From NCBI GenBank assembly GCA_963575745.1, contig CAUYUJ010000026.1, positions 620,001-671,512 on the forward strand: a stretch of DNA of 51,512 nucleotides, written 5' to 3'. This document shows positions 10,059 to 51,441 of the stretch, piece after piece. Both the position numbers and the translations under genes were made by a program. Under the pieces are notes generated by a model. That model was not told where the DNA came from, did no database searches, and worked only from the letters and a program-made list of their open reading frames with translations. The DNA is from Prorocentrum cordatum. Its lineage: Eukaryota. Positions within the stretch are counted from its first letter, which is position 1, and each line of letters opens with the position of its first letter.

Positions 10059-10342
10059 GAGGGTGAGGCCCTCGCCTGGATGCGCCTCAGTGGCACCGGG
10101 CTCGGCCTCCCGCTCGCGAGCAACGGTATCCTGCTGCTCCTGGCTTGCTGGTGGCTGCTGCCGTTGGCGCCTGCGGCCCCCGAGGCGCCCGCGGCGCCTC
10201 CGCAAGTGTCCGCCCCGCTCCCGCTGTTCGAGGCGGGCCCGTTCTCGGCGCCGGGTGAGGCCGCCGGGGTCCAGGTGCCGGTGGCTGACTGCCTGGCGGC
10301 CGCCTTGGACGCGAGGGAGGCGGGCCGCGCCTTTCCCTCGTT

Positions 10343-11872: not shown

Positions 11873-11994
11873 CCCGCGTCGCTAACGGTGCTCGCAGCGG
11901 CCGCCAGGACCTTGGCCATCCTGGAGGGCCCCCCTCTGGCCCTTCGCACTTGACGTCGTGGTTCCCTCGTCATGGCCGTCAGTCGTCAGCGAAA

Positions 11995-12084
<90 letters not shown>

Positions 12085-12458
12085 TCTCCCGCTTCTTCTC
12101 CATGGCGATCCCCGCCGCGCTGCTGGCGGCGCCGCCGCGCGGGTTCGCATGGACTGGGCCAACGACGGCATCAAGGCGCTCAACTGGCATGGGGGGGACG
12201 CTCGCCTCCGACTCAGAAGCGACCGACGGTTTTGCAGCAGCGATCGCTCGACTACACCGCTGCTCAGCATGTCATGTTCGGCGGCCCGCCCCCTGACATC
12301 TCCCGCGTGCACGCTCTCTCCGACATCTGCTTCAGTTGCCCACTCTATGCCGCTGGGCGTGGCGACGTGGTCTCCTTCGGCGAGGACCTGGTGTCCTGGC
12401 CTCCTGGCGGCTCTGCGCCTGTGGCGCTTCATGACGCACTGCTGGAGGCTGACCGTTT

Positions 12459-14040: not shown

Positions 14041-14249
14041 TCAGGGGGGTTGATGGCGAGGTGGCTGATGCCCTGGGCGATCGCCCCCGCGTTCGACGCG
14101 GCGTCGGCGGGGAAGCGAGGCCGAGCGGCCAGGCCCCTGATGCCGACGGGGCGGGCACCTCAGCTCCTGCCCGCCCCCCTGGCTGCTGGAGAGGGCATCC
14201 TGACCGCTCCTGTCCCGCAGTCGGCGGCCGCCCGCCAGCGGGGGCCCCT

Positions 14250-15197
14250 GCTGGGAAGCCTCCTGATTGGCTTCGCCTGCCTCGGGCAGCTGGCCGACTA
14301 CCAGAGAAGGGCCGGCGCCTTCATCGGATGGTGCTCGCAGCCCCACCCAGACTGGGACAACTGGGAGCAGCTGGACACGACCATGGCGACTTACTTTGAC
14401 CACCTGTACTTCCTGGCCGCGCTGAAGTTCTTTCTGCCGCCGATCGGCCGCCGTGGAGACCAGACGTTGCGCCGCGCCTTCCGCAGCCTTGCGAAGCGGG
14501 GGAAGTGCGCCCCCCGCAGGATGCGCGCGCCGCTACCTTGGTCGCTGGCGGCCGCGCTGCCAGGCGCGATGCTCCACCGTGGCCAGGTCCGGCAGACGAT
14601 CGCGATGATCATGAGCTTCGCCAGCCACCTCCGGCCGCCCGAGTGCGACCCGCTGACGGCCACGCAGGTCGCCCCCCCGTCGCGGCGGGCTCCGAGGGCT
14701 CGTGGCTCGCCGCCCTGCTGATCTATCCAGGCGAGCTGGGCCGACCGGGGAGGACGAGCCTCTGGGACATCACAGTGGTGATCGACACCTTCGCGTTCCT
14801 CGCCCCAGCTCTCCTCGGGCTGAAACGGCGAGCTCCGTCGGGGAGGTCACGGCTCTGGCCCTTCCCTCCCGCCTCGCTCGGCCGGAGCATGAGTGGAGCG
14901 GCCTGCGCTCTTGGGCCGAGTGCCTTCCCCGTCCTCGCCTGCAAGCTGCGACGCGGGGGAGCGTCATACGACCTCCGGTCGACGAGGCGGGCCGCCCTCG
15001 ACGTCCAGCAGCGCGGAGGGTGGGCCCCCGACAAGAGCTTCAGGCGCTGCGCGAAGCAGGCTCGGATCATCACCGAGCTCCAGCGCGTGGGCCCGCAGGT
15101 GGTCGCCTTCGGCCAGGTCGTGGACGCCGCGCTGCCTCGCGTCTTCACGCACGGGACGCCACTGCCCGCGCCGTGCCTGACCTCGAGCGGGCGGTAG
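14250..15197 (+). pseudogene. Tyrosine recombinase of the retrotransposon (catalytic residues mutated, frameshifted)
   Basis: HLRPPE (14626, expected YLRPxE), CKLRRGGAS (14940, expected YxLRHGGAS) and RGGW....SFRRCAK (expected RRY). Confidence 0.8.
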
Positions 15198-15299
15198 AGC
15201 TCGCTGGACCCATCGAGTGGGGCCCGTCGGCCACTTCCAGTCGTCGGCACCTCCTCAGTGAACTTCATGACAGATTCAGACGTCAGAAGGGTTCCCCTC

Positions 15300-16020
15300 G
15301 AACCGCCGCCCTGAAGCTGTTCGCCGGGACGGGCCGCCTGTCGACGGCGCTGCGGCGCCGAGGCATCGCCGCGTTGCCGATGGATTTCGCTTCTAAGCGT
15401 TGGTTCGATCTCGAGCATCCTACCGTCCGTCGGACCCTCCGTCGATGGGTGCGGGTCGGCGTGGCCTCAGCTGTCCGGGTAGCCCTGCCGTGCAGCTCCT
15501 GGAGCCAGGCCCGCCACGGACCGCCGGGGTTGGGGGCTGCCCGATCTGGGTGCCAGGCCGCAGGTGGCCGTCGACCTTGGGAACCAGCAGCTCAGGTTCG
15601 TCCTTGGCCTCATCGCTCTCTGCCGCTCGCTTGGAGTCCTAATCAACCTCTCGAACCCGGGGTGCTCGTGGGTTTGGTCTACACCGGCGCTGCAGGCCCT
15701 GCTCGGGGCCCAGGACGCCAAGTCGTTCAACCTTGACATGTGTGCGTTTGGGGCCCGTTGGAGGAAGCACACCCGCGTGGGCTGCTGGGCTCTTCACCAC
15801 CCTGAGGTTTCCGTGAAGCCCCGCAGCAGTTGTAGAGAAGGTTTTTTTCCAGGAAGGCCCCACATAGTCCTCTCTATCCTCGACCCCGTTTCTGGTATCT
15901 TTTGGACTCGCCTCGCCGAGCCGTATCCCGTTAAGTTTTGCAGCTGCTTCTCTGGTCTAATTGCGAGGTATACGGGGAATCAGGGCTTCGAACGCATGGT
16001 GACCTTAGCTTGTCCGATCT
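15300..16020 (+). pseudogene. C5 cytosine DNA methyltransferase domain carried by the retrotransposon (frameshifted)
   Basis: Motif I LKLFAGTG (15311-15334), motif IV LPCSSWS (15485-15505), then after a frameshift SNP (for ENP), DMCAFGARWRKHTR and AEPYP..FC (ORF 15564). Confidence 0.8.
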
Positions 16021-16089
16021 CTGCAGGATACTCTACTCCTGCTCACGTTTTGCAGTTTAAGTTTCTGTCTTATCGGCGCCGTTTTTCGT

Positions 16090-16544
16090 CGCCACTCCTC
16101 CTCTCGGGCTCGGGTTTCCTCCTCGGTGTTGCGTGGGTGCGTTGGGTCCTCCTCCTTCCTCTCTCTTCTGTGGGTCTCGCTCGCTCGCCGGTGCGCCCTT
16201 CGGTGGAATCGCCCAGGACGCCCGCCACACAGAAATGTTGGGGTGGCCTGAGGTGTAGCTGGAGATGGCCGTGTCTTGCACCTCTCATTTCAGGTGTAAC
16301 CGAGGGCCGTCGGTGTCGCGCCGATGAGCCGCAGCCGCGTCGGCTCGAGTCTTTTTTCTAGCCCGCCCTCCTCTCCGTCTTCTCTTTCCTCCTTGGTGTT
16401 GTGTGGGTGCGCTGGGTCCTCCTCATTCCTCTTCTGTCCTCTGTGCGTCTCGCTCGCTCGCTCGCCGGTGCGCCCTTCGGTGGAATCGCCCAGGACGCCC
16501 GCCACACAGAAATGTTGAGGTGGCCTCGGGTGTAGCTGGAGATG
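16090..16544 (+). repeat. Terminal B1-A2-B2 block of split direct repeats
   Basis: ctcgctcgccggtgcgcccttcggtggaatcgcccaggacgcccgccacacagaaatgttg.ggtggcct..ggtgtagctggagatg occurs twice (ending ~16267 and ~16544), bracketing the A2 copy. Confidence 0.9.
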
Positions 16545-35068: not shown

Positions 35069-35296
35069 TGCTAAGTACTTAACATACTTACTACGGTAAG
35101 TTAAGTACTTAGTAAGTAGTTAGCGGACTTAGCTAAGTACTTACCCAGTCATTACTAAGTGGCCCACTTAGTAATGATTTAGTAAGTACTTAGCTATCCA
35201 CTTATAACCAGTTAGCTAAGTGCTTAGCGCACTTAGCTAACCACTTATAACCGCTTATAGCTAGTTTGCTAAGTAGGTTATAAGTGACTTAGCGGT
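35069..35296. repeat. AT-rich array of TAAGTACTTA-like palindromic motifs (candidate subterminal repeats)
   Basis: ctaagtacttaa, ttaagtacttag, gctaagtacttac, gtaagtacttagc, gctaagtgcttagc and many half-sites in ~230 bp, immediately before the palindrome-rich gene block. Confidence 0.75.
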
Positions 35297-35951
35297 TACA
35301 TTGCACTTGTTATCCAAGGGCCATGCACAGGGAAAAAAGGTAAATCCACGCCTTGAAAGAGCTGAGTTTGTTCGTTGAGCGCTGCAGCGCTACAATTTTT
35401 GCATTTTGATTTGGAGTCGGTGTCCTGGATTTTTGCTTTAAATATGAGAGGCGCTGCAGCGCTGCCTTCGGATTTATATGAACATGAAGCGCTGCGTGCG
35501 CTGAATATGAAGCGCTGCAGCGCTGAATGTTGAGTTAAATGCATGTTTTCTAGTTGCACGTTGTTCGGATCTTCATTTTCGCCCAGCTCCGTTTGCAAGG
35601 AATTTGAATGCACATGTCAATTATGTTTTGTTGTATTCGTTGTTTTTCAATGGTCGCATTGAGCGCTGCAGCGCTCCAAATTTGATAGCACGTATGTTAC
35701 TTTGCGCTGCAGCGCAAAAAAATGGTTGTCGTCGTGATGTCGCATCGCGCTGCAGCGCGTGCGCGCTCGTGCTTCATGGGCCTCGGGCTGCAGCCCAGAT
35801 CAACATTTTTGCTCGCAAGTTGCATGTCCATGCAAGTCGATGTTCACGCGCACGCCGCGCGACAGCTTGTCTCAAGCTGCGGCCGCGCGCCGCATCCGCC
35901 GTCGCGCCCGCGGGCTCGCACGTTGCATTCGGCGCTATATATAGCGCTGGC

Positions 35952-38861
35952 ATGGCGCTGCAGGCGCGTCAGGAGGAGCAGATCTTGCAGTACATCGAGG
36001 AAAGCAATTCCTCGGGGAGGTTGGCATCGGGGTGGGATCAACTGAAGGAGTTCCTGCTGGCGGAGGGGCTAGCGTATTACCAGCAGGTCCCACCGAACCA
36101 GATGGGCATCGACATTCGGAACCGCAGCGGTTCGTTAGTGAACCCTGCGCGGGCTCACAATTTAGGCGCGAAGATTTGCGCCCAGGGCTTCGTCTTGGCC
36201 AAGACGGCTGCAGCCACTGCCTTCGAGGCCCCGCAGGGGGCGCAGTTGGAAGAGACCGCGATGGCGAACGACCGCCTTTCGCGGCTCAGCGGGGGTCGGT
36301 GCCCCCCGCTGGACTCATTGCGGTATACGTCAGTGGGCGGCTCCCACACGAACGTCTTCCTCCGCTGCGTGCTGGCCAAGGCGCCGACCACAGTGAAGGC
36401 GCTGGCAGACTCTCGGGGCAACATCGACTCCGAAAAGCTGTGCGCGTTGCATCCGCAACTTGCGACGGCAGTCAAAAAGGGCCTGACGTGGTTGATCATC
36501 AAGCACGCGGTGGCCAAAGTGAAGGGCCTCAAGAACTTCGTGCAGAGGGCTTTGAACGCCGACGTCAGGGAGGCGGTTCACGAGACCGAGATCATTCGGT
36601 CAGGCTGCAGCCTATCCCCACTATAGTATATAGCGGTATGTAGTAAGGACCAGGATGATGCACGAGGAGGGTGATGAGTGGGAGCGCGTTGGGGAGGAGG
36701 TGAGAACGAGGAGCAGGAGCATTATATCTTACAGTGCTGCAGCACTTGATCGGCTCGGCGCTTGCTGCAGGCAGGTGGGCGGATGCTCTTGGCACACAGC
36801 CTCGCTGAGGGTTCCAGCAAGCCCGACTGGCGCGACATCGCCGAGCAAGCGGGCCACGCGAACCCACCTTGCAAGGCGTGGATCGCTGACTTGTGCAAGT
36901 TTGTTGAGCTCGGGCCACAAAACGGAGAACTTCTCCGTGAAATAGATGAAGCCCTCAAGACCTTCACGAATGTGGACGTCTCGGGGCAAACTTTGATGTG
37001 CGGCTCTGAATTTTGGCGCAAGTTGAATTCGATTAAATGGGGGAAGCACCAGGAGTCGTACCCGCATGTCGTAGCGGCGCTCGTGAAGGCCAACTATTCA
37101 GGCGAGCACGTGGTGGATAGCATGTGCAGGACCATCCATAAGCTTGTCGGCGCCCCCTTGTAGTGACATGCGCTGCAGCGCATCTATGCATTGCGCTGCA
37201 TTGTTAGAACTGCGTGCCCACCCCTCCCCCCTCCCCCCACACACACACACGCACCGTTACATTGCTTTATTCCCAAACGCAATCGCTGAAGCGATGTGCG
37301 GATCAAGGCAAACGAGATCGTCCACGTCGCGTCCCGCAAGGCGGACGTGGCTGCGGCCGACAATCTCATGGCCGACGCAAGGTCGCTCGTGAAGAGGTTG
37401 GATATCGGAGCGGAGCAGGGCTTCTTGCACATCACAAAGTTGGATGTCCGCTGTGCCATGTACCTGGTGAAGAAGCGAGCGCCAGGAGACCGCACTTTCG
37501 GATGCGTAGCAGATATAGCACAGGTATCTTCTCACGCCACCTTTCGTGTGCTCCTTGTTTCCCCCCCTCCCTGCTTTTCGCCATTCAATGTCGCTGCAGC
37601 GACCCTCCAGAGAGGTCTTCCTCCATGAGCTCGGGGAGCCAGCCCAGCTGCAGATGAAGAGCTTGGGGATCGAGTTCGGCAAGGCGGTGCAGACCGACAA
37701 GCAAGGCGATGGCGCGCCCGAGTTCCCAGCGAGCGCCGATGCAGACGCGCCGCGCGCGGCAGCGTCGTCGGCCGCTGAGTTGAAGAGCAACGTCTTCCGC
37801 ATGCGGCGTGCAGGGTTCGACGTGGGGAAGCACATCGTCCAGAAGAAGGAGGTGGATGACGTCTTCGAGGTGCTCTCCATCTCGGAGAATGGGATCACCG
37901 CTCAGAAGAAGTTGCACGGCGACCTGGTGGGCGAAGAGATCTCCATTGCGTGGCTGCAGCCACCCCGCCGCCCGTGCAGGGAGCAGGGAGGGGGGAGGAG
38001 GAGGTAGTAACTGCGATATTGTATTTCCTGTACTTAAGTTGCAATGGGTTGGTCGATGCGCTGCAGCGCACGGAGCAGTTAGCCGAGCGGGCGGATTGAA
38101 GTAAACATATTGCTCGAGAATTACAAGTTGACGTCCAGGGTGCAGGAGCAGTTGCCGTTCACGAAGGAGCACTTGCCGCCAGCCCACGAGGGTTGGGCGA
38201 TGGACGCGTTCAAGGGGGCATGCAACATGGCGCTGCGGCTCCAAGCGCTGAAGTACCAGGCGAACATTTTGCACTTGGAGATCCTGCAGGACCCACCTGC
38301 CGTGCGCTGCAAGCGAGCGTTCAAAGTGGGTGAGCTCGTCAGACTTGTGCTTCCGCAATCGTCCGCGCCCCCCTCCGACGACGCCGCGCTGCAGCGCTGC
38401 GCTGGGCACGAGGTAGCGAGGATTTCGGGGCACGTCAGGCCGTAGCGACGAGGTCAGTGACGTTACCGACTGCGCGCCATGTAGCTCCACGCGGTGGGAG
38501 TGGTCGCATTTCAGCCTCGTCCACGCGGGTCAGCACGGGCTGCGTTGCGGAGAGCATCTCGTTGGGGAAGGTTGGCCTCTACGAGTTCTTCGTGGGCCCG
38601 CAGTTCGCAGGGCCCCCCGCTGAGGGGTCGCGGGGCCCCGACGCCTTTGTCAGCCCCTTCTGGGTGGTGGCAAAGTCCGACTCAGAGCCCAACATGGAGC
38701 TCCGAAAGGAGACCGTGACGTTCGGGACAGGCGTCAACAAGGTGCAGGTGGGGGTGCCCCAGATGCATAACACTTGCGCCCTGTCCGCGGGCGACTTCCT
38801 GGTGGTGAAGCCGTGGCCGCGGCTGCAGCCGCGGCCAGCCAAGAAGCTCAGGGCGGCCTGA
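35952..38861 (+). CDS. Six-exon gene (~710 aa): ParB/Srx-like N-terminus, SET-like C-terminus (both tentative)
   Basis: Exons approx. 35952-36593, 36783-37133, 37302-37523, 37615-37944, 38095-~38340 and ~38508-38861, joining ORFs 35604, 36762, 37296, 37546, 38110 and 38457. Motifs: RNRSG..V....HNL...I..QGF, VGGSHTNVFLR, VRCKRAFKVGEL and PQMHNTCALSAGDFLVV. The last junction is ambiguous. Confidence 0.7.
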
Positions 38862-39358
38862 GCTGGCGATATAGAGGGACCACGCGGGAGGATGAGGCAG
38901 GAGGGAGGGGTGATGCGGAGGAGGAGGAGGAGGAGGCAGGGTAAGGTTTGGCATAGGGAGGAGGATGAGGGGGCTTAAGGAGCGGCGAGCGCACATGACG
39001 GCACCGAGCGTGGCCCTCCGATTGGTGTAAACAGTGTGCGGGTTGGTGCGAAGTGCGATACTTGCCGCGGCGCTGCAGCGCGCGGAACGATTCGTTGCGC
39101 CAGCATCGTCGCTGCAGCGACTGTACAATATTGGTGCTGACATCAGCCTTTCCCACAGACATGCCGCTGCAGCGGCTTCGTCATCACTGTTGTGCTCGAT
39201 GTGATCGTTGCTCTTCGCTTCATCTTTCACATGCGCTGCAGCGCACCTCATCATGAGCACCTCGTCCGCGCACATGTTGCCTCATCACTCCATCGCAGCA
39301 ATTTTGGCGCTGAAGTGCGACCGCGCTCGGGCTGCAGCCTCGGCGCGCCGCGCGCGCG

Positions 39359-40122
39359 ATGACGACGATCAAGCGCGACTGCGTCGTGCTGCACGACAAC
39401 CGTACGGGGCGCGAGCTGGTCGCGGCCGTCGAGGTCATCGGAGACCGCGAGTGTATCACCGTGACCACCGCAGGTTGGAGCAAGTGGGTGTGCGGCAAGG
39501 CTCAGGGCTTGCGAGGCACGATGTTCCTAACGTGGCTGAAAAATCAGCGCACCGCGTCGTCGGGGCCAACGGCGCCGACGACGCTCTTCGCTGCAGCGGA
39601 GCCAGGCCGCCGCCCGACCACGCGGTCCGGCCGCGCCAGTCGCCAGGTTCCAGTGGACAAGTGCTTCAAGACAGTGCAGCTGCCGCCGTTTGGCGATACT
39701 GAGGCAACAGAGCTGCAGATTGTCATTCCCCCACCTCATAGGGGGGGAGGGACAAGCTGCAGGTGGTGCTGCACGAGAAGGGCGTAGAGTACATCAAGGC
39801 CAAATTGCTTCAGGAGGCGGCGGAGGCGGCAGAGGCGAGCACGGTGCTGAAGCGCCCGCGGCGCCACGAGACCGACGTTCCTTGCGGCGCCCGCATCTAT
39901 TGGGTGCAGCGGCTCCAAGCTTGGCGGGCCGTCCGCACAGACTGCGGTTGCAGCAGGACGGCCTTGTTCCGCACAAACCGCGGCTGCAGCAAGGATGCCG
40001 CTGAAGCGGCCGCGGCGAAGTGGTGCACCGCCGAACTCAAGGATTGCGAAGCGGATGAGCTCCAGGAGATGGAAGCGGAGGCGGAGGGCGATGCGGAGGA
40101 GGAGGAGGCCGACTCGGACTGA
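39359..40122 (+). CDS. Hypothetical protein with AP2-like C-terminal domain; frameshift at G7 run 39741-39747
   Basis: ORF 39359 continues in the frame of ORF 39763 (DKLQVVLHEKGVEYIK...). IYWVQRLQAWRA.....RTALFRT......AAEAAAAKW resembles the AP2 beta-beta-beta-alpha pattern, followed by an acidic tail. Confidence 0.55.
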
Positions 40123-40631
40123 GCTGCGGCGCGCTCGGTCGACCGCATCGCTGGGGCGTGCGATCACGGTCGGCAGTGCGATTGAGAATGGCAGCGAGGA
40201 GGACGAGCACGAGGACGAGGGCGAGGAGGAGAAGGAAGAGGAGGATTGGGATAATAATTGCGGATTGTTGGTGGATCCCCCAATGTTCGCTACTGTTGGT
40301 GTCATTGCGAATCGTTGGTATGATCAAGCGTGCTGCAGCACGACGACACTACGATCAAGTGTGCCTCTCACGCGTTGCCGCCGTCGATGTGTGACCTCAC
40401 GGCGCTGCAGCGCTGACTTACGTTTCGTGTGTTTGGAGTCCATCGTGCTGCAGCGCTGATTTACGTTCGGGTGTCTGGCGTGCCGATATCAGATTTTTGC
40501 GTCGCGCTGCAGCGCTGACTTACATTTTGTGTGTCTGGCGTGTTGATGTAGCGCTTCGATCGCGCTTGCAGCCCGCATGTTCGCTTTATGTTATTGCATG
40601 TGGTTCGCAGCCACTTGTGATCAGAACATCA

Positions 40632-40985
40632 ATGGCTGCCAACATGAGTGCAGCGACGCCGCCATGGCGGCTTCCCTCGGAGCCAGTGCCGCCGCCGAAG
40701 GCGAAGTCCGCTGCATCGGATGCGACATATGCGGCTACTCCCCCTCCTCCGCCGCCGCCGCCGCCACCACCGCCTCCGACGTCGACGAGGACCGCGGCTG
40801 CAGCCGCCAGTGATGTGCCAGCCCCGCGCGCGGCTGCAGCCGCGCGCAAGCGCGATGCTGATACCAAGGTTGGCATGTGGAAGCTTGTGTGCGACATGAT
40901 TCGGGAAGCGCTTCAGCGCGGGGACCGCGAGGCAGCGTTTGCGCTGGCAGTCCAATACCACGTCGCGAAGAAGCCGCGGAAGTGA
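40632..40985 (+). CDS. Small Pro-rich hypothetical protein with C-terminal helical motif
   Basis: ATG 40632 within ORF 40497; ends GMWKLVCDMIREALQRGDREAAFALAVQYHVAKKPRK. Confidence 0.55.
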   Translation: MAANMSAATPPWRLPSEPVPPPKAKSAASDATYAATPPPPPPPPPPPPPTSTRTAAAAASDVPAPRAAAAARKRDADTKVGMWKLVCDMIREALQRGDREAAFALAVQYHVAKKPRK

Positions 40986-42073
40986 CGGGCGCGCGGCGCG
41001 CGCGCGGTCAGTGCTGCAGCACCACTGTTTCAGTCGGATACAGCATCGCGACGGCGGCGACGGCGACAGAGACAACGACGACGGCGTTAAAGACGACGTA
41101 ATTCAGAGCAGTGCATGCAGGAGAAGAAGGTGGAGGGAGGATGATGATGAGGAGGAGGAGGGTGATCAGGAGGACGACGACATTGAGGACGACGTTCTGG
41201 AACGCCCTCATTTTCACAGGTTCCCACCGCTCGCTGCCAGCACCTCGGAGCAGGGGAAGGGGGAGCAGGATGATGATGATGAGGAGGAGGAGGAGGAGGA
41301 GAAGGAGGCCGAGGACGAGGAGTATGACGAGGAGGAGGAGGAGGAAGACAACCAGTTGGCACCCATGCCCCGCCCCCCCGATCCTTCTGCCTATTCCTGC
41401 CTCCGCATACTCCCTCTCCTCCTCCTCCTCCTCCTCCTCATCCTCCTCCTCCTCCTCCTCATCCTCCCTCTCATTCTCCTACTCCTCCTTCTCCTCCTCC
41501 TTCTCCTCCTCCTCCCTCTCCTTCTTCTCCTCCTCATCAGCGTCCTCCTCCTCCTCCTCCTCCTTCTCCTGCCCCCCCCTCCTCCCCCCCCTCCTCCTCT
41601 CCCTCCAATCCTCCTCCTCCCCCTCATCCTCCTCCCCCTCCTCCTCCTATCCTGAGGGGGCAGCCCTGGGGAGGTCAATCCAGTCGTTGGCCTTCGGAGG
41701 TTCAGTTGGGGGTGATGTTACTTTGCGGGGTGATGTCACTTTGGGGGGTCAGTCGATTGGTTAGCAGGGGTCCGTCGTCGTCAGCGTCGTCGTCATCGTA
41801 TTCGTCGTTGGCACCGCCGCTGTTTTTGTTCCGTGCAGCTGCAGCTGCAGCTTCGTGCGCTGCAGCGCCCGCGCGCCGCCCTGCGGCGCCCACGCGCCCG
41901 AGCTCAGCTTCAGCTGCAGTGATGGGACTGGTTTCCACCACCACTATACCATATGTTGGAGAAGGAGGAGGAGGAGAAAGAAGAGGAGGAGGAGGACCTC
42001 TCCCTCCAACTTATGGTACTGGTGGTGAAAACCAAGCCCATCATGCAGCTTGGCGAGCTGCAGCCTCGCTGCG

Positions 42074-42685
42074 ATGGCGTACCTCGACTACGACGAGGAC
42101 TTCGAGGAGTTCGAGGCCGCGGCCACGGCGGGGCCGCGGCCTCCCTCGGCGCCGCCGCCAGGCGCGCTGCTGGCCAAGGCGCGGCCGCGACCGTCGCCGT
42201 ACGGCAGCGTCGGCCGCGCCTTGGCCAAGGGCACGGGCAAGGACAAGGACAAGGACAAAGACAAGGACGGCGGCCCACCTTGCGCCTCGGGCAAGGGCAA
42301 TGACAAGGACAAGGACGTCGGCGGCCCACCTTGCCAGGGCATGGGCAAGGGCAAGGACAAGGACAAGGACGTCGGCGGCCCACCTTGCAAGGGCAAGGGC
42401 AAGGACAAGGACAAGGACGACGGCGGCCCTTGCAAGGGCAAGGGCAAGGACAAGAGCAAGGGCGGCAAACTTGCCCAAGGGCAAGGGCAAGGGCAAGGGC
42501 GGCGGGGCGGCTGGTTCAACAGGGCGCAGCGGCTCTGCGAGCTGCTGCTGGCGGGCGAGTACGCCGCCGCCGCCGCCCTGGCCGAGGAGTACTACGCGGG
42601 CCCAGCAGAGGTCTGGGTCGGCCAGGGCGGCGGCGGCGGCGAGGAGGCCGCCGAGGAGGCGCTGCAGGCGCCGTGGGGCGCCTGA
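42074..42685 (+). CDS. KG/KD-repeat hypothetical protein with C-terminal motif shared with 40632-40985
   Basis: ATG 42074 within ORF 42050; GKGKDKDKD.GGPPC repeats, then GGWFNRAQRLCELLLAGEYAAAAALAEEY. Confidence 0.6.
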   Translation: MAYLDYDEDFEEFEAAATAGPRPPSAPPPGALLAKARPRPSPYGSVGRALAKGTGKDKDKDKDKDGGPPCASGKGNDKDKDVGGPPCQGMGKGKDKDKDVGGPPCKGKGKDKDKDDGGPCKGKGKDKSKGGKLAQGQGQGQGRRGGWFNRAQRLCELLLAGEYAAAAALAEEYYAGPAEVWVGQGGGGGEEAAEEALQAPWGA

Positions 42686-43922
42686 GGAGGCGCAGGCGCC
42701 GAGGAGGGCGCCGAGGGCTGCGCGCAGGCGCTGCAGGCGCCGAGGGCTGCGCGCGGGCGCTGCAGGCGCCGAGGGCTGCGCGCGGCGCCTCCCTCAGGCG
42801 CCTGGCGCTGCAGGCGCGGGCGGCGCCTCCCTCAGGCGCCTGGCGCTGCAGGCGCGGGCGCCAACATGAGAGCCGCGGCAGGCCGGGCCGCCGCGGAGCA
42901 TCCAACTGTCTGGGCGACGGAGAGGGTGGACTATAGTAGAGGTAGAGGTAGACAGGGGGAGAGGGTGGACTATAGTAGAGGTAGACAGGGGGGAGACGTA
43001 ATATACATAGGGAATGCGAGGGGGACGATGGAGACGCAGCGTGGGGGTGGAGTGAAGACACATTGGAGAGAGACGGTAGACAGGATGCCCGCTGCAGCGG
43101 GTATCCACTCTCCCGTGAGCGAGGGGGACAACGAACGCATAGTGATAGGATACATGCTGTAGCAACCCAACATGTAAGATCAATGGGAGCAATGGGGGGG
43201 GTGGATTGGATCAGTTCGCGAGCATAGCCTGCCGACGCATGCATGTGTTTTAGGCCAGGTTATATTTCGTGCGCCAGATCGCGTGGTGCGCCCGCGCTGT
43301 CGCCCAGAAAGGCGCTCCGATATCCTCATCACATCTATCTGCCATCGTCGACGTTCACATCCTGATCCGCTGACATTTTTTTGTATGGACTGATGTGCCA
43401 GGGGTCGGCCTTGGATTGGCCAGGAAAGTTTGGGGGCACTTGGGGGGGTCCTGGGGCACTTCAGATGGCAAACAGTCTCGCATCGCATCGCCCTTCGCCA
43501 CTCTCCCTGCTCCCCTTCAGCACAGTTCGTTGCGCCGCCGAGTAGCTCCCCCCATGGCCTCCTGGCAGCCTCACCAGCTCCCATCAGCCTTGTCCTCAGC
43601 AGTCTCGAGCCATCGCGACGCTGCTGCAGCAGAGCCGTGAGCGTAAATCTTTGCAGTTGACAGCGGTGTCGGCATCGTCAACCTCGTCGCGACGCTGCTG
43701 CAGCAGCGCCGCGTGATGTACTTCGCGCATCTCTTAGTTTCACTCCCACCTCGAAATCAGCAGTGTGGACAGTGGTCTGGGACTGCGTGGGTGGGCGTTG
43801 GGGTGGGCTGGAGTGCTGGATGTTGGCTTCAGGATGGCTGATATGAGGTCGAACGGGAGCTTCGGGTGAAGCGATCTGAGAGCGTCGGTGTCCCTCTGCA
43901 GGGGTGATGCTGTCTGACAGCG

Positions 43923-44073
43923 GCGTGTCTGTTCAATAGCCCCCTCTATTGAACAGCCACGCCCGTGTCTGTTCAATAGCCCCCTCTATTGAACATGCCA
44001 TGTTCAATAGCCCCCTCTATTGAACAGCCACGCCCGTGTCTGTTCAATAGCCCCCTCTATTGAACAGACACGC
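43923..44073. repeat. Four tandem identical hairpins TGTTCAATAG-CCCCCT-CTATTGAACA
   Basis: Copies at 43930-43955, 43970-43995, 44001-44026 and 44041-44066. The block is bounded by a 17-bp inverted repeat gcgtgtctgttcaatag / ctattgaacagacacgc. Confidence 0.95.
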
Positions 44074-44894
44074 TTCTGTCGATGTCCCAGCTGCCTTCGA
44101 GGCTCCCAGATCGCTTCGGTATTTGCTCCTGATCACACTTCGCGCATCTCCTGAATCCGCCCCGCGCCCTCCTCGGACACCTTCCGTGTCCCTCCTGTGT
44201 CTGCCCGCCCGCCCGCTCCCGAGCTCCCGTGTATACCTATCCGTCTCCCGTGTCTCTCCCGCGTCTCTCCCGTGCCCCTTCCGTGTCTCCACATGCCTTC
44301 CGTGCGCTCCCGCCCGTGTCCCTCCGCACCGCTTCCGCGTCCGTCCGCCCGCTCGCCCCCGAACTCCCGTGCCCCTCCCGTGTCTCTTCCGTGCCCCCCC
44401 CCGTGTTTCTCCCATGTCCCTCCCACCCCTCCGTGTCTTTCGCACCGTCCCTTCCGTGTTCCTCAAATGATCATGCATCCCCCCCCCGCGTCCTGCCCGC
44501 CCGCCCGCCCGCGCTCGTGTCCTTCCCTCCCGTGTCTCCTCGCATCTCCCCCCGCCCCCCCCCCCCCCCTCGTGTCCCTCATTATCTCCCTCCTCTCCTT
44601 TCCATCACTCTATATCTCTCTCCCTATTGCCCACTACCATGCGTTCCATCATGGTGCGCATGCATAGCGCTGCAGCGCTTCATGTTACTTTGTGACGATG
44701 ATTTCTGCTGAGCGCTGCAGCGCTCACGTGTGTTCCTTAATTGCATGCGATCGTTGCGCTGCAGCGCATCTGTACTGTTGTGGCCTCTCTTCCACCTCAG
44801 CAGCCGAGTGCTTCAGCTCTCGCAGTGTGGGAGGCCCTCCCTCGCGCTTCCCCTCGGAGCGTCCGCGCACCCCCTCGCCCTCGCGGAGGGCATC

Positions 44895-46756
44895 ATGTCT
44901 GCCGCGGCTGCGGCCACACCCATCAACCACATCCTGGATAACCTGGACAGCTGCGACGCCTTCTTCGCATCGCAGATCGGCGTCATCGCCGCCGACGCGA
45001 TGGCGCAGAGCCAGTCCGCCTTGTCCATGAGCGTGCAGCTGCAGCTTCACAACTTGGGGACGATCGGGGCTGCCCAAGCAGCTACCCTGCAGAATCGAAT
45101 CACCGCGTCGGGCTTCGCGGACAGCCATAAGGCGCGCCTCAGCGCCGTGCTGGCCGCGCGCGTGGGCACGGCGACGCCCACGCTCCAGATGCGCGTGCAG
45201 ACGCTCGCGTCAGGGCGGTGCTATCCATCGTGCTGTGCACATCGGACCGCCGAAGTGTTATTCACATGTATGGTTTAATTGTTTGTTCTGTACTTTATGT
45301 ATGTTACCATGTTCATTTTTCAAATGTACTTATGTTAGCATGCTGCAGCATGCCTGCGTCGATTCGTAGGCTGGTGGGCTTTACCATGCAGGACTGGGGT
45401 TTATTTCGCGACCCCAGCCAGAGCATCGTCGCGAAGGTGCGCGCGTTGATCAAACGTTGCGGTGCCATCGGCTTGACGGTTCCGAGCGAGAACACGCTGA
45501 AAGAGTTGGCGGCGTTGATGGCATGCGCCCATCTTCCAGACGCAAACCCTGGGCAGCTCTACGGGATCGTGACGGAGATGAAGGTTTGGGATTCGGCGGG
45601 AACGCCTAACGCAGACGCATCATATCGCACTGACTGCAGCCAATGCGATGCGGCGCGTCAGCGTTAGGGTTTCCCGACGAGTCGCCCTTTACAGGGTCAG
45701 TTCTTGGCGAGCCGCAGGGGCGCGACGGGGCAAGCGGCGACAGTGACTTGGAATTTCCCAGCAGATCCTCGGCAGCTCCCTCAGCACATCTTCGACGCGG
45801 CGTACACCGATGCGGACCCGCCGATCGATGTGACGCGCGACCTCGCCAACGTGGTATCGCATCTACGAGGCTGCTGCCACCCCGTCATGCGCTGCAGCGC
45901 TGATTGTTCTGGATGTCTTGGGTGCTTCGGTGAGCTCGGTCCTTTAGGTCCACCTCGCATAGAGCATGATAGGTTTCATGCTACGCGTGCGCCGCTGAAG
46001 CGGCCTGCGGGTCTCAACGCCATCAAGGCTCGCGTGCCTCTCAGGCTGACCAACAAGGGCTTGCGGGCTGCCGCCCCACCGCATCAGCCGAGCACTGCCA
46101 TTGTGCCATGGACACCATCGGGGTCACCCTCCGTGCCGCCTGCAGCGCCAATGCAACCCATGGACGCGATGGCCGTGATGCAGCAAATGCTGGCAGCGTT
46201 TGCGCCACCGCCATCGCCGCCCAACGAGCTGCAGCTGCAGCTCTTCCCGCGCCGCCCTGCGGCGCCCACGGCGAGCCCCCCCGCGAGTCCCCCCGCGATT
46301 GGTGATTCGCCAGCTGGGCCAGCATTGTCAGCGGCGGCGCCAGATGCTGCTGCAGCAGCGCCAACGCCGCCAAACGAAGATGCTGCTGCAGCAGCAGACG
46401 GAGACGAGGATGCTGTGCTGCAGGCGATCGAGACCTTGGCTGCGGGCAGCGCGAAAGGCGAGCTGCCTCGCAAGGGCAAGGGCAAGGGCAAGGGCAAGAA
46501 GGGCAAGGGCAAGAGCGCGATCAAGGGCAAGAGCAAGACAGGCGCTGGCAAGGGCAAGACGGCGGCCAAGGGCACGGCCAAACCGAAGGCCAAGGGCAAA
46601 GGGAAGGCCAAAGCCAAGGCCAAGGCCAAGCCCAAGGGCAAGGCGGCAGCCAAACGGGGCCAAATGGCACTCGGGTGCAGCAAATGCCGCTACCTGCCGA
46701 ATGGCTGCGGCACGTGCCGCGACCCGAACTTCACTGGCCGTCGCGGCAAGCCGTGA
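44895..46756 (+). CDS. Multi-exon hypothetical protein with Lys/Ala-rich basic tail and terminal CxxC-x6-CxxC motif
   Basis: Exons approx. 44895-45214 (GC-AG intron 45215-45369), 45370-45583 (GT-AG intron 45584-45694), 45695-~45840, a probable in-frame intron to ~46003/46010, then to the stop at 46756. Ends KGKAKAKAKAKPKGK...LGCSKCRYLPNGCGTCRDP. Confidence 0.7.
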
Positions 46757-47497
46757 GCGCGCAACGGGCACTGTCGGCATATGGAGGTGAGGATGAGGAT
46801 TATGAGGGCGAGGAGGAGGATGGGTAGGATGATGAGGAGGATGAGCATGTGGAGGAGAAGGAATGAGGAGGATGGTGAGGATTAGTGCGAGGTTGGATGG
46901 AACGCTGGCCGATGATATGAACGGTAGTGGCGATGGTCTTGCCTGGCGGTCGCGCGGCTCGCACGGACGACGAGGAGGATGAAAGTCAAATATGTTGACG
47001 GGTTCTCTTGGGTGCGGGCGCTGCAGCGCTGGCGCCTTTGTGGTCAACGTTTACATCGCCATCATCATCACGATGCAGCGCTGCAGCGCTCGCTTTCCTG
47101 GATGGTGGCGTAGATATTGCGCGCTGTTGTGTTCCCATGCAGCGCTGCAGCGCCTGTCAGACTTGTGGTGCCGTTGTAGCGTTGGCGCGTTTGTGAGCGT
47201 GCAGTTGCAGCCGCGGTGTCCATGTATTGCGTGACGTGCTCGTATTGAGTGCCAGTCGTTCCTCGTCGATACGCGCTGCAGCGCCATCATTCGTGATGTC
47301 GAGCGTTGTCTCCCGCATGGTTGTTGCCAAGTCACGCGCTGCAGCGCTGTGATTCGCTCATGTTGCGCGTTGCCGATGGCATGCCCTCCTCCCCCTTCCT
47401 CCTCCTCCTCCTCACTTGGCTCGCGCGTCGCAGTCGCCATCGTTCGCTGCAGCGGGTGCTGGCAACGGACCTCCTCCGCCTCCTCACTGGGCTCGCA

Positions 47498-47928
47498 ATG
47501 GCGGCGCGCCGCTGCGACAAGCCGTTCGAAGCGCAAGCGCGCGCCGACCGTCGCGACGAGTTGCGCGAGGCCCGCGCGAGAGCGACGGCGACTGCTACAG
47601 CAGAGGTGAAGGAGGCGCGGAAGAACGCCAGGAAAGCGGAGAAGCAGGTGCAGATCCGCACCGCGGAGCTGCAGGTGGATGAGGAGGCGGATGAGAAGGA
47701 GGACGGTGGGGTTCATGAGTGCGGCAGGCTACTCCCCCGCTGCAGCGGGGGAGAAGGACGACAGGGGGGATGATCAGGAGGAGGTGGAAGGCGATGATGT
47801 GGGAGGATGAGGAGTATGAGTAGCAGGGTCGGGGTCAGATGGACATCGCCGCTTCGGACGTGGCCAACCAGAAACTCAACGAGGCGTTGACCTCGCTGCG
47901 GAACGCCAAGAAGATGAAGGTGACCTGA
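47498..47928 (+). CDS. Small two-exon basic coiled-coil-like protein
   Basis: 47498-47674 (MAARRCDKPFEAQ...AELQ), GT-AG intron 47675-47838, then 47839-47928 (MDIAASDVANQKLNEALTSLRNAKKMKVT*). Confidence 0.5.
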
Positions 47929-48605
47929 GTGAGGTCGGCCTCGGCGACCGCCTGCTGAAGCATGCTGGTTCGATTGATTGGTAAAGGCTGGAGGGAACGT
48001 GGTTGAGCGTGTTGTTTGAGTTGCGCTGCAGCGCTTCTCCGTGGACCACGGTTGAAAGTTTGCGCGCGGATCATGATGTGTTAATGTGTTGCGCTGCAGC
48101 GCAGTTTCGCTTGCAGTTTCTCGTTGGATGGTGATGTGGCGGATGATGAGGGCGAGTGATATTGATGCTGTTGACGATGAAGGTGATGGTGACGGGGGGA
48201 TGAAGGGACGGGAGACGGATGATGAGGAGGATGGGTAGGTTGAGGAGGAGGATGGGGAGGATGAGGGGGCGCATGAGGCGGAGGAGGAGGAGGAGGAGGA
48301 AGAGGAGGAGGAGGAGGTATAGGAGGGGGAGGAAGAGGAGGAGGACGAGGGGGATGGCGAGCAGGATGGAGGAGGAGGAGGACGTTCGCGCTGCAGCGCG
48401 TCAGATTGTCATCATTGAACGTTAGCGGCGCTGTAGCGCCATGTGCTCCCAGACTGTTGCTTGGCAGTTAGCGCTGCAGCGCGCATTTGGTTGCTCTCCA
48501 CGCGGTGCAGCCTCATTTCCATCCGTAGTCGCCGTGGCCCCTAGCGGAGGGGCCCCTCCGCGCGCGCGCAGCGACGGAGGCAAGCTTGCCTCGGGAACGC
48601 GCGCG

Positions 48606-49116
48606 ATGGCGGCAGAGGACGACCGCCCAGCGAAGCTGCGGCGGCTGTCCCGCCTTCGCGCGGAACTGCCATTCATGCATTGTAATGCGATGGCGCAATT
48701 CCTGGCGTCCGTTAAGCGAGACGGAACCCCCGAATTGGGATCCCGACGCCAGGATATCAGAGACGCTCGGGAGCTCATGGTCGGTGAGAACACGCCGTAC
48801 GGCAAGCTCCACCAGAACATGGTAGTCGGGCAGCACACGGTGGAGATCTGCAGTCCAGCAGCAATGCTGTGGTATTGCAGCGCCCTCCCCGCGATGCAGC
48901 CTCTGTGGCAGCGGGCGCTGGAGCTGCCACGCCCGTGGCACATCATCATTTACGGCGATGAAATAGGCGCTGGCAACGCGCTGGCGCACGTGCAGAACCG
49001 CAAGTCGTGGGGCATCTACTGGACGATCGCGGAATTCGGCCCGCAGGCGCTTTCGTCGGAGGACTTTCGCGATAGCGTTGCTGCAGCAACGATATATGCG
49101 GGGGGGGGGAGGGGGG

Positions 49117-49164
<48 letters not shown>

Positions 49165-51048
49165 CTGCAGCGCCAGTTGTGCTGCGATTTGTTCGCAGGA
49201 TGCGTGGTTCCAGCTCGCGACGATGCGGGCCAAGACCGCGAACGACATCCAGCCGCACGGACTGACGATGCTACTGGACGCAATCCTCGCGCAGTTCTGG
49301 CCTGATCAGGGGCGCAACTTCAGCGCAGGCATCAGCTTGCGGCTGCGCCCCGACGGCGCGACGGAGCTCATCCAGATGGACCTCGGAATTTACATTCAGC
49401 CGCTGCAGCGGTCGCCGCATAGCACCCAAGATTAGTTAGCATACATGTGCACATGTATATATCCATTACGCCTTCTTGCGTCGCTGCAGCGGCTCTGTCG
49501 GATCGCGGACGAGGATGCAATACACCGCTTGATCGGAATGAAAGGTTCGTCAGGAATCAAACCATGTTTTATGTGCCGCAACGTGTTCTTGAAGGGCGAA
49601 GTTCGGGATATAGTTGCTTCTGATGCGACGGGTGTCGCTGTTCACCACTCGGAACCAGATGCGTCGCGGCTGCAGCCGATGACGGCGCCGTTGCTCGATG
49701 CCATCTGCAACAGATTGATCGAAGGGGTCAACATCATGAACAAGGGCGAGTTCCAGGAGTTGGAGCGCCGACTTGGCTGGAACTGGGACCCCCATTTGCC
49801 TGAGCGGGTTCGGAAACTCAAGCCGCTCGAGACAGTCATGTTTGATTGGATGCATTGTATTTTCGTCAACGGTACATATAACATTCTGGTGTTCCAAATG
49901 TTTCGAAGGTTGAAGGGTTACTGGGCGCGCGCAGACGCATATTTCCAGGACTGGTCGTTTCCAGGGTGCCACTCCATCTCCCCCGACACGCACGCGATCT
50001 TCGGCGAGAAGCGCGCGAGGTCCCACGTTGACAGCAAGCATTTCAAGTGTACCGCCAGCGAGGGGCTCACAACCATGCAAGTATCATTGCATGCTTCGCG
50101 CCCCCGCCAGACCAATAATACATGCGCTGCAGCGCACGTGAATTTCTGTAGGATATGTACTGCACCCCTCTTGTTCGGACATGCGTTCGCGCGGGCGGAT
50201 TGACGTGTTTCTTCAGGGAGGTGGCTAGCGACGCTGCAGCGCCTGCAGTCCGATCTGCTTGCGCAGTGTTCGAGGCGCACACGATCGTTGTGGAAGAAAT
50301 CCTACGAGTATCCAGGCGTCAGGCAGACGCGGATAAGCTGCAGGCTGCGGTTAACATGTTTTTGTTGTCATACAGCAGCGTCTTTGGCAAGGAAACGATG
50401 GCGCAGAAGTTCCATTACCTGCACCACTTCGCCAACTACGTGAGGCGTTGGGGCCATGTGGCGCTGCCGTCGTGCTGGGTTTTGGAGCGCAAGCACAAGA
50501 CCAGCAAGCGCTTTGCGAACGCTCTTCAGGTGGGGGCTGCAGCCTCCAGCGGCTGGGACGCCAATGTCCTGAAGAGCGTCACCGAGCGGCACCTGTGGCA
50601 GCTCATGGATGGCGGCACCTTTAAGGTTAACTGCCTGGTTAACGCCACCAGGCCGTCCAAGGCCATCTCGCGCGAACTGCTGCAGCAGTTCGGGCCTGCG
50701 GACTTTGTTACGTCCGCTGCAGCGCGGCGCCGCTACCACGACGTCAAATACGGCGACGTCGTGCTGTTGGAGGACGGAGGAGGGGAACACATTGCGGCCG
50801 AGGTGTTGAAACACCTCTCCTTCACCAAGAACGGCCACTACTATGGCTTGAGCTTGGTCCTGCCCTACTTCTTCAAGGAGAAGCTGCACCCGCGCGCCTC
50901 CGCGCACGTGCTTGGCGGCGATGCCGACGCCTTTTGGGCGCACACGGCGAGCATCGTGCGCTCGCTCGCGTGGGCGCCGCGCGAGGGCGGCGGCATCCGA
51001 GCGGCGCGCCCGATATGGTCGCAGCCGCGGTGGTGCGCTTTAGCCTAA
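48606..51048 (+). CDS. CACTA/CMC-EnSpm-like DDE transposase, four exons, ~693 aa, apparently intact
   Basis: Exons 48606-49061, 49199-49393, 49502-50082 and 50199-51048 (2082 nt, in frame). Motifs in the order known from EnSpm-type transposases: IYGDEIGAGNAL, IADEDAIH, KPCFMC, FDWMH, KFHYLHH, CWVLERKHK. Confidence 0.8.
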
Positions 51049-51441
51049 AACGTGGATTCCTTACTGGCGCTGCAGCGCACTTTTTTACATTGCTAAATGC
51101 TTCGGTGCTGCAGCACCTGAACGTTGCATGGTCGACGACTCCTCTTCTCCGCCTTGAAAACGTGGATTCCTTCTGCATGGCGCTGTAGCGCACCTTTTTC
51201 ATTGACACTTCGGTGCTGCAGCACCTGAACAGTGCATGGTCGCCGATTCCTCTCCTCCGCCTCGTTCCTCCTCCTCCTCTTGCGCTGCAGCGCTAATGTC
51301 GTTGATCAGTGGTGCGGTCGTTCAAACTCCTCCTTCCCCGCGTCCTCCCCCTTCTCCCCCTCCTCCTCCTGCTCCTACTGCTGCTCCTCCTCCTCATCTT
51401 GCTCCCCCTCCCCCTTCTCCTCTCCCCCCCCCTCCTCTGAC

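Follow-up and report, generated by a model that had tools for sequence, protein, structure and literature searches.

Organization of the locus

The DNA studied here is a stretch of 51,512 nucleotides from Prorocentrum cordatum (contig CAUYUJ010000026.1, positions 620,001 to 671,512), hereafter the window. Its right-hand part is occupied by a block of genes that we regard as a single mobile element, and the element is filled with copies of an 8-bp palindrome, GCTGCAGC. Within one clade of large, probably Plavaka/CACTA-like DNA transposons from dinoflagellate-type genomes, these copies are cis-acting signals that have been maintained. From left to right, the block consists of a terminal repeat array, about 9.5 kb of cargo that reaches to gene X, and two core genes, gene X itself and a transposase-like gene (Table 1). 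Here and below, gene models and intron limits were inferred from reading frames and homology. Pfam scans gave nothing above threshold for any open reading frame (ORF) of the block.

Table 1. Features of the element, in window coordinates
Feature	Position	Strand	Remarks
Left subterminal repeat array, the element's left terminus	35071..35293	.	Units such as cttagctaagtac, containing palindromes TTAGCTAA and AAGTACTT
Zone of GCTGCAGC palindromes, all 72 sites	35381..51291	.	Invariant 8-bp core with covarying arms of 2-3 bp
Cluster of 7 palindromes ahead of gene 1	35381..35794	.	Exact sites
Gene 1, multi-exon cargo gene, predicted ParB/Srx-like N-terminal fold	35952..38861	+	ORFs, relatives, structural model
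Cluster of 5 palindromes between genes 1 and 2	39072..39338	.	Exact sites; all arms different
Gene 2, family not recognised	39359..40122	+	ORFs, homology; earlier AP2-like candidate, unsupported
Cluster of 4 palindromes ahead of gene 3 (ATG 40632)	40332..40513	.	Three lie in locally repeated GCTGCAGCgctgacttacgttt-like units
Low-complexity, repeat-rich stretch with 7 palindromes	41100..44600	.	ORF list, repeat search
Cluster of 3 palindromes ahead of gene X	44669..44765	.	Exact sites
Gene X, first core gene, lysine-rich, ends CxxC...CxxC	44895..46756	+	Adjoins the transposase-like gene in many relatives
Spacer between the core genes, 11 palindromes	47020..48480	.	Site 48473 conserved in L069
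Transposase-like gene, second core gene, ~690 codons	48606..51048	+	Introns inferred at ~49071/49077-49198, 49402-49489 and 50081-50151
Tandem units of ~110 bp after the stop codon (51047-51154, 51157-51262)	51047..51291	.	4 palindromes, two of them ggtGCTGCAGCacc

The left terminal array is built on TTAGCTAA, AAGTACTT and ACTTAG, and its motif is found at 18 positions within 35071-35287 and at one other position in the window. Matching arrays lie at the right ends of the contigs of relatives L071, L077, L079, L080, L081, L087, L104, L107 and L135, and at the left end of L108; the right-end arrays are about 400-700 bp past the transposase-like gene and close the contig. Because arrays typical of the family end the relatives' contigs in this way, we take the block to be one mobile element with its left terminus at about 35.05 kb. 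The right terminus should lie just past the end of the window. The same TTAGCTAA/AAGTACTT/ACTTAG arrays are common to the whole element family, including clades that lack GCTGCAGC. Contigs often break off within these arrays, which probably serve the family as subterminal repeats bound by the transposase.

The two-gene core, in which gene X supplies the CxxC-type protein that the original prediction had ascribed to the element, recurs in metagenome contigs. A pattern search matched 404 stretches, of which 93 were confirmed as relatives and 80 were kept. At the protein level, 209 of the 8000 candidates scored were relatives at E ≤ 1e-3, and among the 120 matches listed the relatives are unnamed, called 'hypothetical' or without a meaningful name. 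Marine metagenomes thus reveal a large unannotated family of two-gene elements. Neither core protein gave a Pfam match, whether pieces from the window or two full-length intronless relatives of each were searched. The neighbours of the large core protein in the ESM Atlas are clusters with Plavaka (PF18759) or Transposase_21 (PF02992), at 0.91-0.96; from this lead, and from what we take to be a resemblance of its motifs to those of transposases, we call it transposase-like. Its C-terminal exon (50152-51048) is 92% identical to its closest match, a P. cordatum protein, which points to a host among dinoflagellates of that kind. Large gene clusters flanked by Plavaka are known from Amoebidium (PMC11244446).

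An 8-bp palindrome confined to the element within the window

The window contains 72 exact GCTGCAGC sites. The first starts at 35381 and the last occupies 51284-51291, giving one site per ~220 bp across the zone, and the count in positions 1-35380 is zero. The original prediction, made from the letters alone, had proposed some 70 copies confined to the gene block, and both number and confinement hold; the eight palindromes that it quoted individually are all present at the coordinates given, with arms of 5, 3, 3, 8, 7, 4, 7 and 4 bp. Dinucleotide-preserving shuffles gave a mean of 2.34 sites (standard deviation 1.47, maximum 7), and none of 100 shuffles reached 72. Markov expectations within the block were 1.56 (order 1) and 1.5 (order 2). 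The G+C content of the block (0.614) is nearly equal to that of the first 35 kb (0.606), and the hexamer CTGCAG occurs 93 times in the block versus 9 in the flank. The lack of GCTGCAGC in the 35-kb flank is not depletion, because chance expects only about 1.6 sites there. The first GCTGCAGC is 94 bp beyond the last terminal-array motif, that is, the palindrome zone opens just inside the left terminal array, and within this window the sites are confined to the element, again as predicted. A related palindrome, CAGCGCTG, arises where GCTG follows the GCTGCAGC core on the right. The block has 11 copies of it and the flank none; some GCTGCAGC sites therefore belong to alternating GCTG/CAGC runs.

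Covariation of the arms

The bases flanking the core differ from site to site yet are usually complementary across it. The mean contiguous arm is 2.63 bp. Reassigning the right flanks among the sites, a control that preserves the GCGC-biased consensus, gave 0.73 ± 0.10, and the highest of 2000 such shuffles reached 1.10. The fraction of Watson-Crick pairs at ±1, ±2 and ±3 is 0.96, 0.81 and 0.58, versus 0.41, 0.41 and 0.28 after partner shuffling (0/2000 at each position). Pairing at ±4 and ±5 shows no significant excess over partner shuffles, and at ±6 it is 0.43 versus 0.24 (0/2000). A covariation score computed on 70 sites, two overlapping sites being excluded, was 0.430, against 0.152 ± 0.019 for shuffles (0/500), and partners slid out of register gave at most 0.154. 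In this 70-site set the pairs at ±1 are CG 42, UA 11, GC 10, AU 3, UG 1 and other 2. From the excess complementarity it follows that the unit is a perfect palindrome of 12-14 bp with a fixed 8-bp GCTGCAGC core, and that the symmetry goes beyond the GCGC-biased consensus, as the original prediction had supposed. Arms of 6-8 bp are found at four of the 72 sites. Where the core carries one mismatch, arms of at least 2 bp are kept at only 13 of 59 places in the block.

A tendency of the DNA at large toward perfect palindromes was considered and ruled out, since other palindromes of the window extend much less often (in 0.31-0.33 of cases for 6-mers and 0.26-0.48 for 8-mers). In folding, 65 of the 72 sites form a hairpin centred on the site. 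The mean folding energy as RNA is -7.87 kcal/mol, versus -5.04 for partner-shuffled 20-mers; as DNA the energies are weaker, -4.88 versus -2.9. Stems this short are poor candidates for cruciform extrusion from duplex DNA.

Conservation in a related element

Relative L069, which shows 59% identity in the C-terminal domain, was aligned to the window across both core genes. In the non-coding cores, 77 of 103 positions (0.75) are identical; elsewhere in non-coding DNA the figure is 485 of 1133 (0.43), about the value of a forced alignment. Coding identity is 0.62, with 0.51 at third codon positions. At the aligned place, six of 13 non-coding sites are fully conserved (45342, 45891, 48473, 49164, 49402 and 49483), and so are four of 10 coding sites (45038, 46385, 50233 and 50536), the homology of 46385, in a low-complexity stretch, being doubtful. 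Site 49080 differs by one base in L069, and transposase intron 3 has one site in each element, at shifted places. Compensatory changes are found at ±2 of two intronic sites, A:T to G:C at 45342 and G:C to T:A at 45891. The conservation of the cores together with the compensatory changes in the arms means that the sites are maintained, and are neither chance occurrences nor the result of simple copying. The GCTGCAGC palindrome is almost certainly a working signal. The earlier proposal, in which selection or an active process and not mere copying accounts for the symmetry, is supported by the arm covariation, the sites shared with L069 and the two compensatory changes.

Distribution in the transposon family

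GCTGCAGC is abundant in several relatives: 25 copies in 6.1 kb of L069, 13 in 4.0 kb of L073, 14 in 5.9 kb of L081 and 8 in 2.4 kb of L086. In the same order, the observed and partner-shuffled mean arm lengths are 2.08/1.01, 1.08/0.44, 2.36/0.49 and 3.38/1.38. A tree of 51 C-terminal domains, from which two loci with stop codons were dropped and into which truncated loci such as L086 were not entered, places all enriched loci in one 13-member clade (support 100/98). Eleven of the 13 members carry 0.7-4.5 sites/kb, and the other 38 rows have 0.7 or fewer, mostly 0; within the clade, sites are sparse in L080 and L097. Path lengths among its members reach about 2 changes per column, so that the fixed core must be old.

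The clade is also distinct in composition: its members have 47-61% G+C and apparent introns, while the sister clade is AT-richer and intronless. The enriched clade could then merely share a host group, and the palindromes could be common in transcribed regions throughout this group of dinoflagellates, their restriction to the element being an appearance created by a flank that has no ordinary gene. The flank is indeed a weak control, for the first 35 kb is repeat-rich and has long ORFs without a recognisable family. We consider such a host-wide genic feature improbable. The palindrome zone opens 94 bp inside the terminal array, L080 and L097 are poor in sites despite their place in the clade, and full-text literature searches gave no report of such a motif. 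Further, P. cordatum introns average 4.7 kb and only 2.4% of them have an end-to-end inverted repeat, according to the genome report (PMC10666404).

A different idea, that every lineage of the family iterates a palindrome of its own, came from a first count in which ATAGCTAT stood out in L076, CCCATGGG in L124, CATGCATG in L119 and AAGCTT in several loci. This idea was abandoned. ATAGCTAT in L076 and CCCATGGG in L124 are tandem subterminal arrays, and with an order-2 background a palindrome is the top hexamer in only 5 of 66 loci. No arm covariation was found for AAGCTT, ATGCAT, CATGCATG or GCATGC, and the 22 CTGCAG sites of L138/L144 resemble ordinary 3' splice sites or Leu-Gln codons. L119 (913-4987), which lies outside the tree, has CATGCATG 23 times and TGCATGCA 14 times, dispersed over 5.5 kb and without arm covariation.

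Positions of the sites in genes, introns and spacers

By the inferred models, the 72 sites comprise 34 in intergenic spacers, 18 in exons, 13 in introns and 7 in the low-complexity stretch (41.1-44.6 kb). The original prediction had placed them upstream of genes, in nearly every intron and inside coding sequence, and the models agree. Spacer clusters of 3-7 sites end about 20-160 nt ahead of the ATGs at 35952, 39359, 40632, 44895 and 48606, and spacer sites also follow the last stop codon. The 13 intronic sites are 0-31 nt from an intron end. In gene 1, whose exons are covered by relatives P0015, P0025 and P0031, the inferred introns hold one or two palindromes each (36604, 36736, 37172, 37593, 37953 and 38060); site 36604 would provide an in-frame GC donor, in agreement with P0015, and site 37593 an in-frame CAG acceptor. 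Transposase intron 2 is flanked by identical copies of CGCTGCAGCG(G) in equal codon phase, 81 nt apart in the window and 76 nt apart in L069, so that removal from palindrome to palindrome would keep the frame in both. In L069 this intron has a GY-AG solution that begins at the palindrome. The L069 gene X intron has nine in-frame GY-AG solutions, one of which begins at the palindrome, and is therefore non-discriminating.

Sites are not restricted to non-coding DNA in the rest of the clade. Its other loci have 1.0 sites/kb in conserved coding matches (23 in 23.1 kb) versus 2.9/kb elsewhere (59 in 20.0 kb). In the window, exonic copies make use of Ala codons seldom found elsewhere: there are six in-frame GCT-GCA-GC sites in 5.9 kb, and outside the cores the Ala codons are GCG 124, GCC 65, GCA 38 and GCT 29.

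The proximity of sites to intron ends raises the question of introners, the tiny intron-forming transposons of dinoflagellates, with the palindromes as the inverted-repeat ends of such miniature elements colonising the larger one. The P. cordatum rule calls for an inverted repeat of 8-20 nt no more than 30 nt from each intron end (10.1101/2022.07.25.501386), and at least four inferred introns have GCTGCAGC sites that conform to it, namely gene 1 introns 1 and 4 and transposase introns 1 and 2. There are other likenesses: in Amoebophrya, introners contain hairpin motifs that are palindromic, and their borders vary and are non-canonical (PMC7789003), and Symbiodinium inverted repeats end at the 3' splice site (10.1101/2020.10.14.339549), as sites 37593 and 49483 similarly do. 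Introners and the present sites thus have in common short inverted repeats near both intron ends, hairpin potential, odd borders and the same host group (PMC7789003, 10.1101/2022.07.25.501386, 10.1101/2020.10.14.339549). Introners also have direct repeats of 3-5 nt over their exon/intron borders, and transposase intron 2 as modelled has identical border repeats of 10-11 nt. Set against these likenesses are differences. Only 13 of the 72 sites are intronic, with 34 intergenic and 18 exonic, and one fixed 8-mer is present in all of them. Arms covary across the centre of a single site, not from one end of an intron to the other, and the intron interiors have no mutual similarity. Positions are conserved with L069, across deep divergence, while the interiors have diverged past alignment, which indicates old maintained sites rather than recent insertions. 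In addition, only 2.4% of P. cordatum introns conform to the introner rule (PMC10666404). An origin of the palindromes as introner ends is accordingly quite unlikely. The observations do suggest that a particular motif, common to several introns, may be required by some of the dinoflagellate introns that have inverted repeats at their ends.

A hairpin in RNA or a mark on DNA

The explanation that we rank first, and hold tentatively, is that the sites act as protein-read hairpins in the element's own transcripts, as a signal for processing at the RNA level. A single-stranded site would fold into a short stem-loop in which two invariant G-C pairs close a UGCA loop above a lower stem free to vary, and such hairpins could be read by a protein, or could pair with each other, during RNA processing. 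The sites would mark the spacers ahead of each gene in a one-directional gene array. Others lie at the ends of introns or close to them, and a few of these seem to provide the GC donor or the CAG acceptor. A protein-read hairpin is proposed because hairpins of this kind typically combine an unchanging top with a lower stem that covaries, and processing of RNA is ranked first because this pattern is joined with placement near intron ends and ahead of genes.

Several observations weigh against a transcript hairpin. An RNA stem read from the sense strand alone should tolerate G:U pairs, yet the sense strand shows no preference for them: wobble shows no strand-specific signal, with 27 G:U-type pairs at ±1 to ±3 in the sense and 18 in the antisense direction, and among 152 sites arm extension favours sense in 33 and antisense in 26 (p = 0.43). 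With no signal in either direction, the wobble test was set aside as a discriminator between RNA and DNA. The loop is self-complementary and the whole site a perfect palindrome, which is more natural for a dimer on duplex DNA. A splicing signal has no need of the 18 sites in inferred exons, six of which use the rare in-frame GCT-GCA. The four sites with arms of 6-8 bp, some of them exonic, go beyond what hairpin stability needs and hint at a generating process; one long-arm site, 50679, arose inside a codon run that L069 does not have. For transposase intron 2 of the window, no canonical GY-AG solution was found, and every intron limit is inferred.

A number of these points turn naturally toward duplex DNA. 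A dimeric protein of the element's own could bind or load at the sites, which would be spread over the element as parS, KorB operators and Noc sites are over replicons, and serving in expression control, insulation or self-marking. Candidate readers would be the gene 1 ParB/Srx-fold protein, the CxxC protein and the transposase-like protein, and the symmetric arms would come from local copying of one arm to the other, by template switching or by nick-and-foldback repair at the centre. This is possible, if somewhat unlikely. It would account well for a site of 12-14 bp that is palindromic in its entirety, loop included, and without strand asymmetry; for sites that are strewn over the full length of the element, in spacers, introns and exons alike; and for exonic sites that are kept by means of rare codons and are conserved in L069 (50233, 50536 and 45038). 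Pairing declines with distance from the core (0.96, 0.81, 0.58, 0.31) and a few arms reach 6-8 bp, as short conversion tracts starting at the centre would produce, and the clusters before each gene are like promoter-proximal site arrays. Other points count against duplex marks. A dimer on duplex DNA leaves the covarying arms unexplained on its own, and the low extension of the other 6-mers and 8-mers shows no general tendency to perfect palindromes. Duplex marks also give no reason for the placement near intron ends.

One of the candidate readers is the gene 1 protein. It shares its N-terminal domain with a large family that lacks annotation, comprising 1052 proteins at E ≤ 1e-3 and of roughly 750 aa, and Pfam had no hit in 14 of 14 of the gene 1 relatives searched. 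The N-terminal 216 residues were modelled with AlphaFold2 (pLDDT 96). In VIA-align, the top nine rows for this model are all ParB, PadC, Noc or KorB (Z 5.8-7.0, rmsd 2.7-4.4, 93-101 residues), followed by SbnI and sulfiredoxin (Z 4.1-4.7); the caution line is Z = 8, below which a match can be a common arrangement. Foldseek E-values were about 1, a profile search of the PDB found no ParB hit, and the ESM Atlas gave no usable hit. With moderate confidence, then, the domain is predicted to have a ParB/Srx-like fold. The label 'ParB-like' in the original prediction has this moderate structural support; the scores themselves stay under the caution line. Such a fold would make duplex marks an attractive reading. 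No helix-turn-helix domain was shown in the modelled 216 residues, a relative of gene 1 was found in none of the 80 related loci, although their contigs are short, and the enriched relatives examined carry only the two core genes.

A stronger form of the idea would have the palindromes constitute a transposon 'self' code, in which a fixed palindrome every ~200 bp, extending into cargo genes, introns and codons, is read by a protein of the element. The obvious candidate reader would be the gene 1 ParB/Srx-fold protein, loading on or marking element DNA as a nuclear counterpart of ParB-parS, KorB or Noc. If true, the element would be kept expressed or insulated in the histone-poor chromatin of dinoflagellates, with arms made symmetric by central nicking and fold-back repair. 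We think this unlikely.

Self-marking might instead be of the modification or restriction type, the CTGCAG-centred sites being methyltransferase or nuclease targets that distinguish the element from its host. The core does include a PstI-type hexamer, the sites are palindromic and element-wide, and Pfam gave a sub-threshold Methyltransf_23 row on gene 1 exon 2 (E = 0.019, 15 bits versus a cut-off of 27). No methyltransferase or nuclease domain scored above threshold in Pfam scans, restriction-type systems usually deplete rather than enrich their own sites, and the covarying arms would be left unexplained. Such a role is very improbable.

In sum, one transposon clade has possessed and maintained the motif for a long time, and its mechanism is more likely than not either the RNA hairpin, which we place first, or a DNA mark. 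The case has unusually clean boundaries: one element with a defined terminus, a fixed core with covarying arms, conservation across deep divergence of the transposase-like gene, and very few encoded proteins, hence few candidate readers.

Comparison with known iterated palindromes

Iterated palindromes such as HIP1, REP and the GC palindromes of organelles are a long-standing puzzle, in that the reader and the benefit are rarely known. The GC-rich PstI palindromes of Neurospora mitochondrial DNA and the REP/RAYT systems have a fixed short core (CTGCAG in Neurospora) and variable complementary arms, and lie between genes. These systems are organellar or bacterial and genome-wide, whereas the present palindromes are in a nuclear-type element with spliceosomal-looking introns and belong to one transposon clade. 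No Y1 (HUH) transposase turned up in general Pfam scans, which did not include a dedicated search. Replicons with ParB-parS, KorB-operator or Noc-NBS systems have many copies of a palindrome of 13-16 bp together with a ParB-fold protein. The element is similar in having many palindromes and a protein whose modelled N-terminal domain appears nearest to ParB, PadC, Noc and KorB; it differs in its eukaryotic host, far higher site density and variable arms, and in that no DNA-binding domain was identified.

HIP1 (GCGATCGC) of cyanobacteria is a G+C-rich 8-bp palindrome, over-represented tens of times and selected, with function unknown (PMC5861425). As with HIP1, the octamer is far above what composition predicts (72 sites versus 2.3 in shuffled DNA and 1.5 by Markov expectation), and its conservation exceeds neutral expectation, 10 of 23 aligned sites being fully conserved and cores 0.75 identical versus 0.43. 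Both motifs occur in coding and non-coding DNA and are kept by selection. HIP1 is bacterial and genome-wide, while the motif here fills one eukaryotic mobile element and is absent from the adjoining 35 kb, has covarying arms and is related in position to introns and gene starts. The analogies to HIP1 and to the Neurospora PstI palindromes that were drawn at the outset are fair likenesses, but they do not amount to membership.

Within eukaryotic transposons, there is a likeness to the long terminal repeats (LTRs) of maize Sireviruses, which have conserved, hairpin-capable palindromes that are kept in old copies (PMC4728375). Conserved hairpin-forming palindromes inside a eukaryotic transposon are thus common to both (PMC4728375). 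[quoted passage not shown] Full-text literature searches found no description of such a palindrome in dinoflagellates or transposons. No system compared is known to join a fixed octamer, covarying arms, a spread over genes, introns and spacers, and a clade of nuclear DNA transposons.

Further observations on the element and its surroundings

A separate perfect palindrome of 16 bp, GCGCTATATATAGCGC, lies at 35932-35947, 4 bp ahead of the gene 1 ATG (35952); it is TATA-like, which is unusual for a dinoflagellate gene. The original prediction had called gene 2 'AP2-like', and this found no support: neither Pfam, PDB sequences nor homologues of near length gave a match, and a single-sequence model was poor (pLDDT 59.5) and all-helical. 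In the low-complexity stretch between cargo and core there is a perfect 66-bp direct repeat (43930-43995 and 44001-44066) within a 165-bp imperfect inverted repeat at 43916-44080. Tandem, palindrome-bearing units follow the stop codon of the transposase-like gene in the window (51047-51262), in L081 (5537-5733) and in L069 (5767-5802). The 14-mer ggtGCTGCAGCacc recurs in the units of L081, although its protein and that of the window share only about 28% identity.

Many relatives lack introns and have a higher A+T content, with contigs of about 6.0-6.6 kb. Whole contigs of this size with just the two intronless core genes include, for example, L089, L101, L103, L108, L121 and L126. The basic element may therefore be about 6.0-6.6 kb, and the copy in the window an enlarged, intron-bearing form that carries cargo. 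A short minus-strand ORF of L103 (262-678) has a cysteine/histidine pattern that would resemble a MYND-type zinc finger.

A viral origin was considered, and viral contigs had no relatives of the transposase-like protein or of gene 1. A scan of viral contigs for paired motifs gave 68 loci; the richest, with 10 sites in 6.1 kb, most likely reflects G+C-rich sequence. Rfam gave no matches anywhere in the window. In the first 35 kb there are long ORFs (up to 648 codons) at 10289-16361, 69-71% G+C and without a Pfam match; a retroelement was our first guess for these ORFs (10.3-16.4 kb), and no Pfam match backed it. A run of N is present near 16.9 kb.

The stretch 44600-51300, which includes both core genes, is represented in eight DNA sequencing runs that hold 0.71-0.87 of its sampled words. 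Some of the runs are marine metagenomes with no more than 129-206 million letters, and three organisms under different labels are among the sources. If the host genome spans several gigabases, such coverage would imply a very high copy number of the element or a separate high-copy form, and is so far only a lead.

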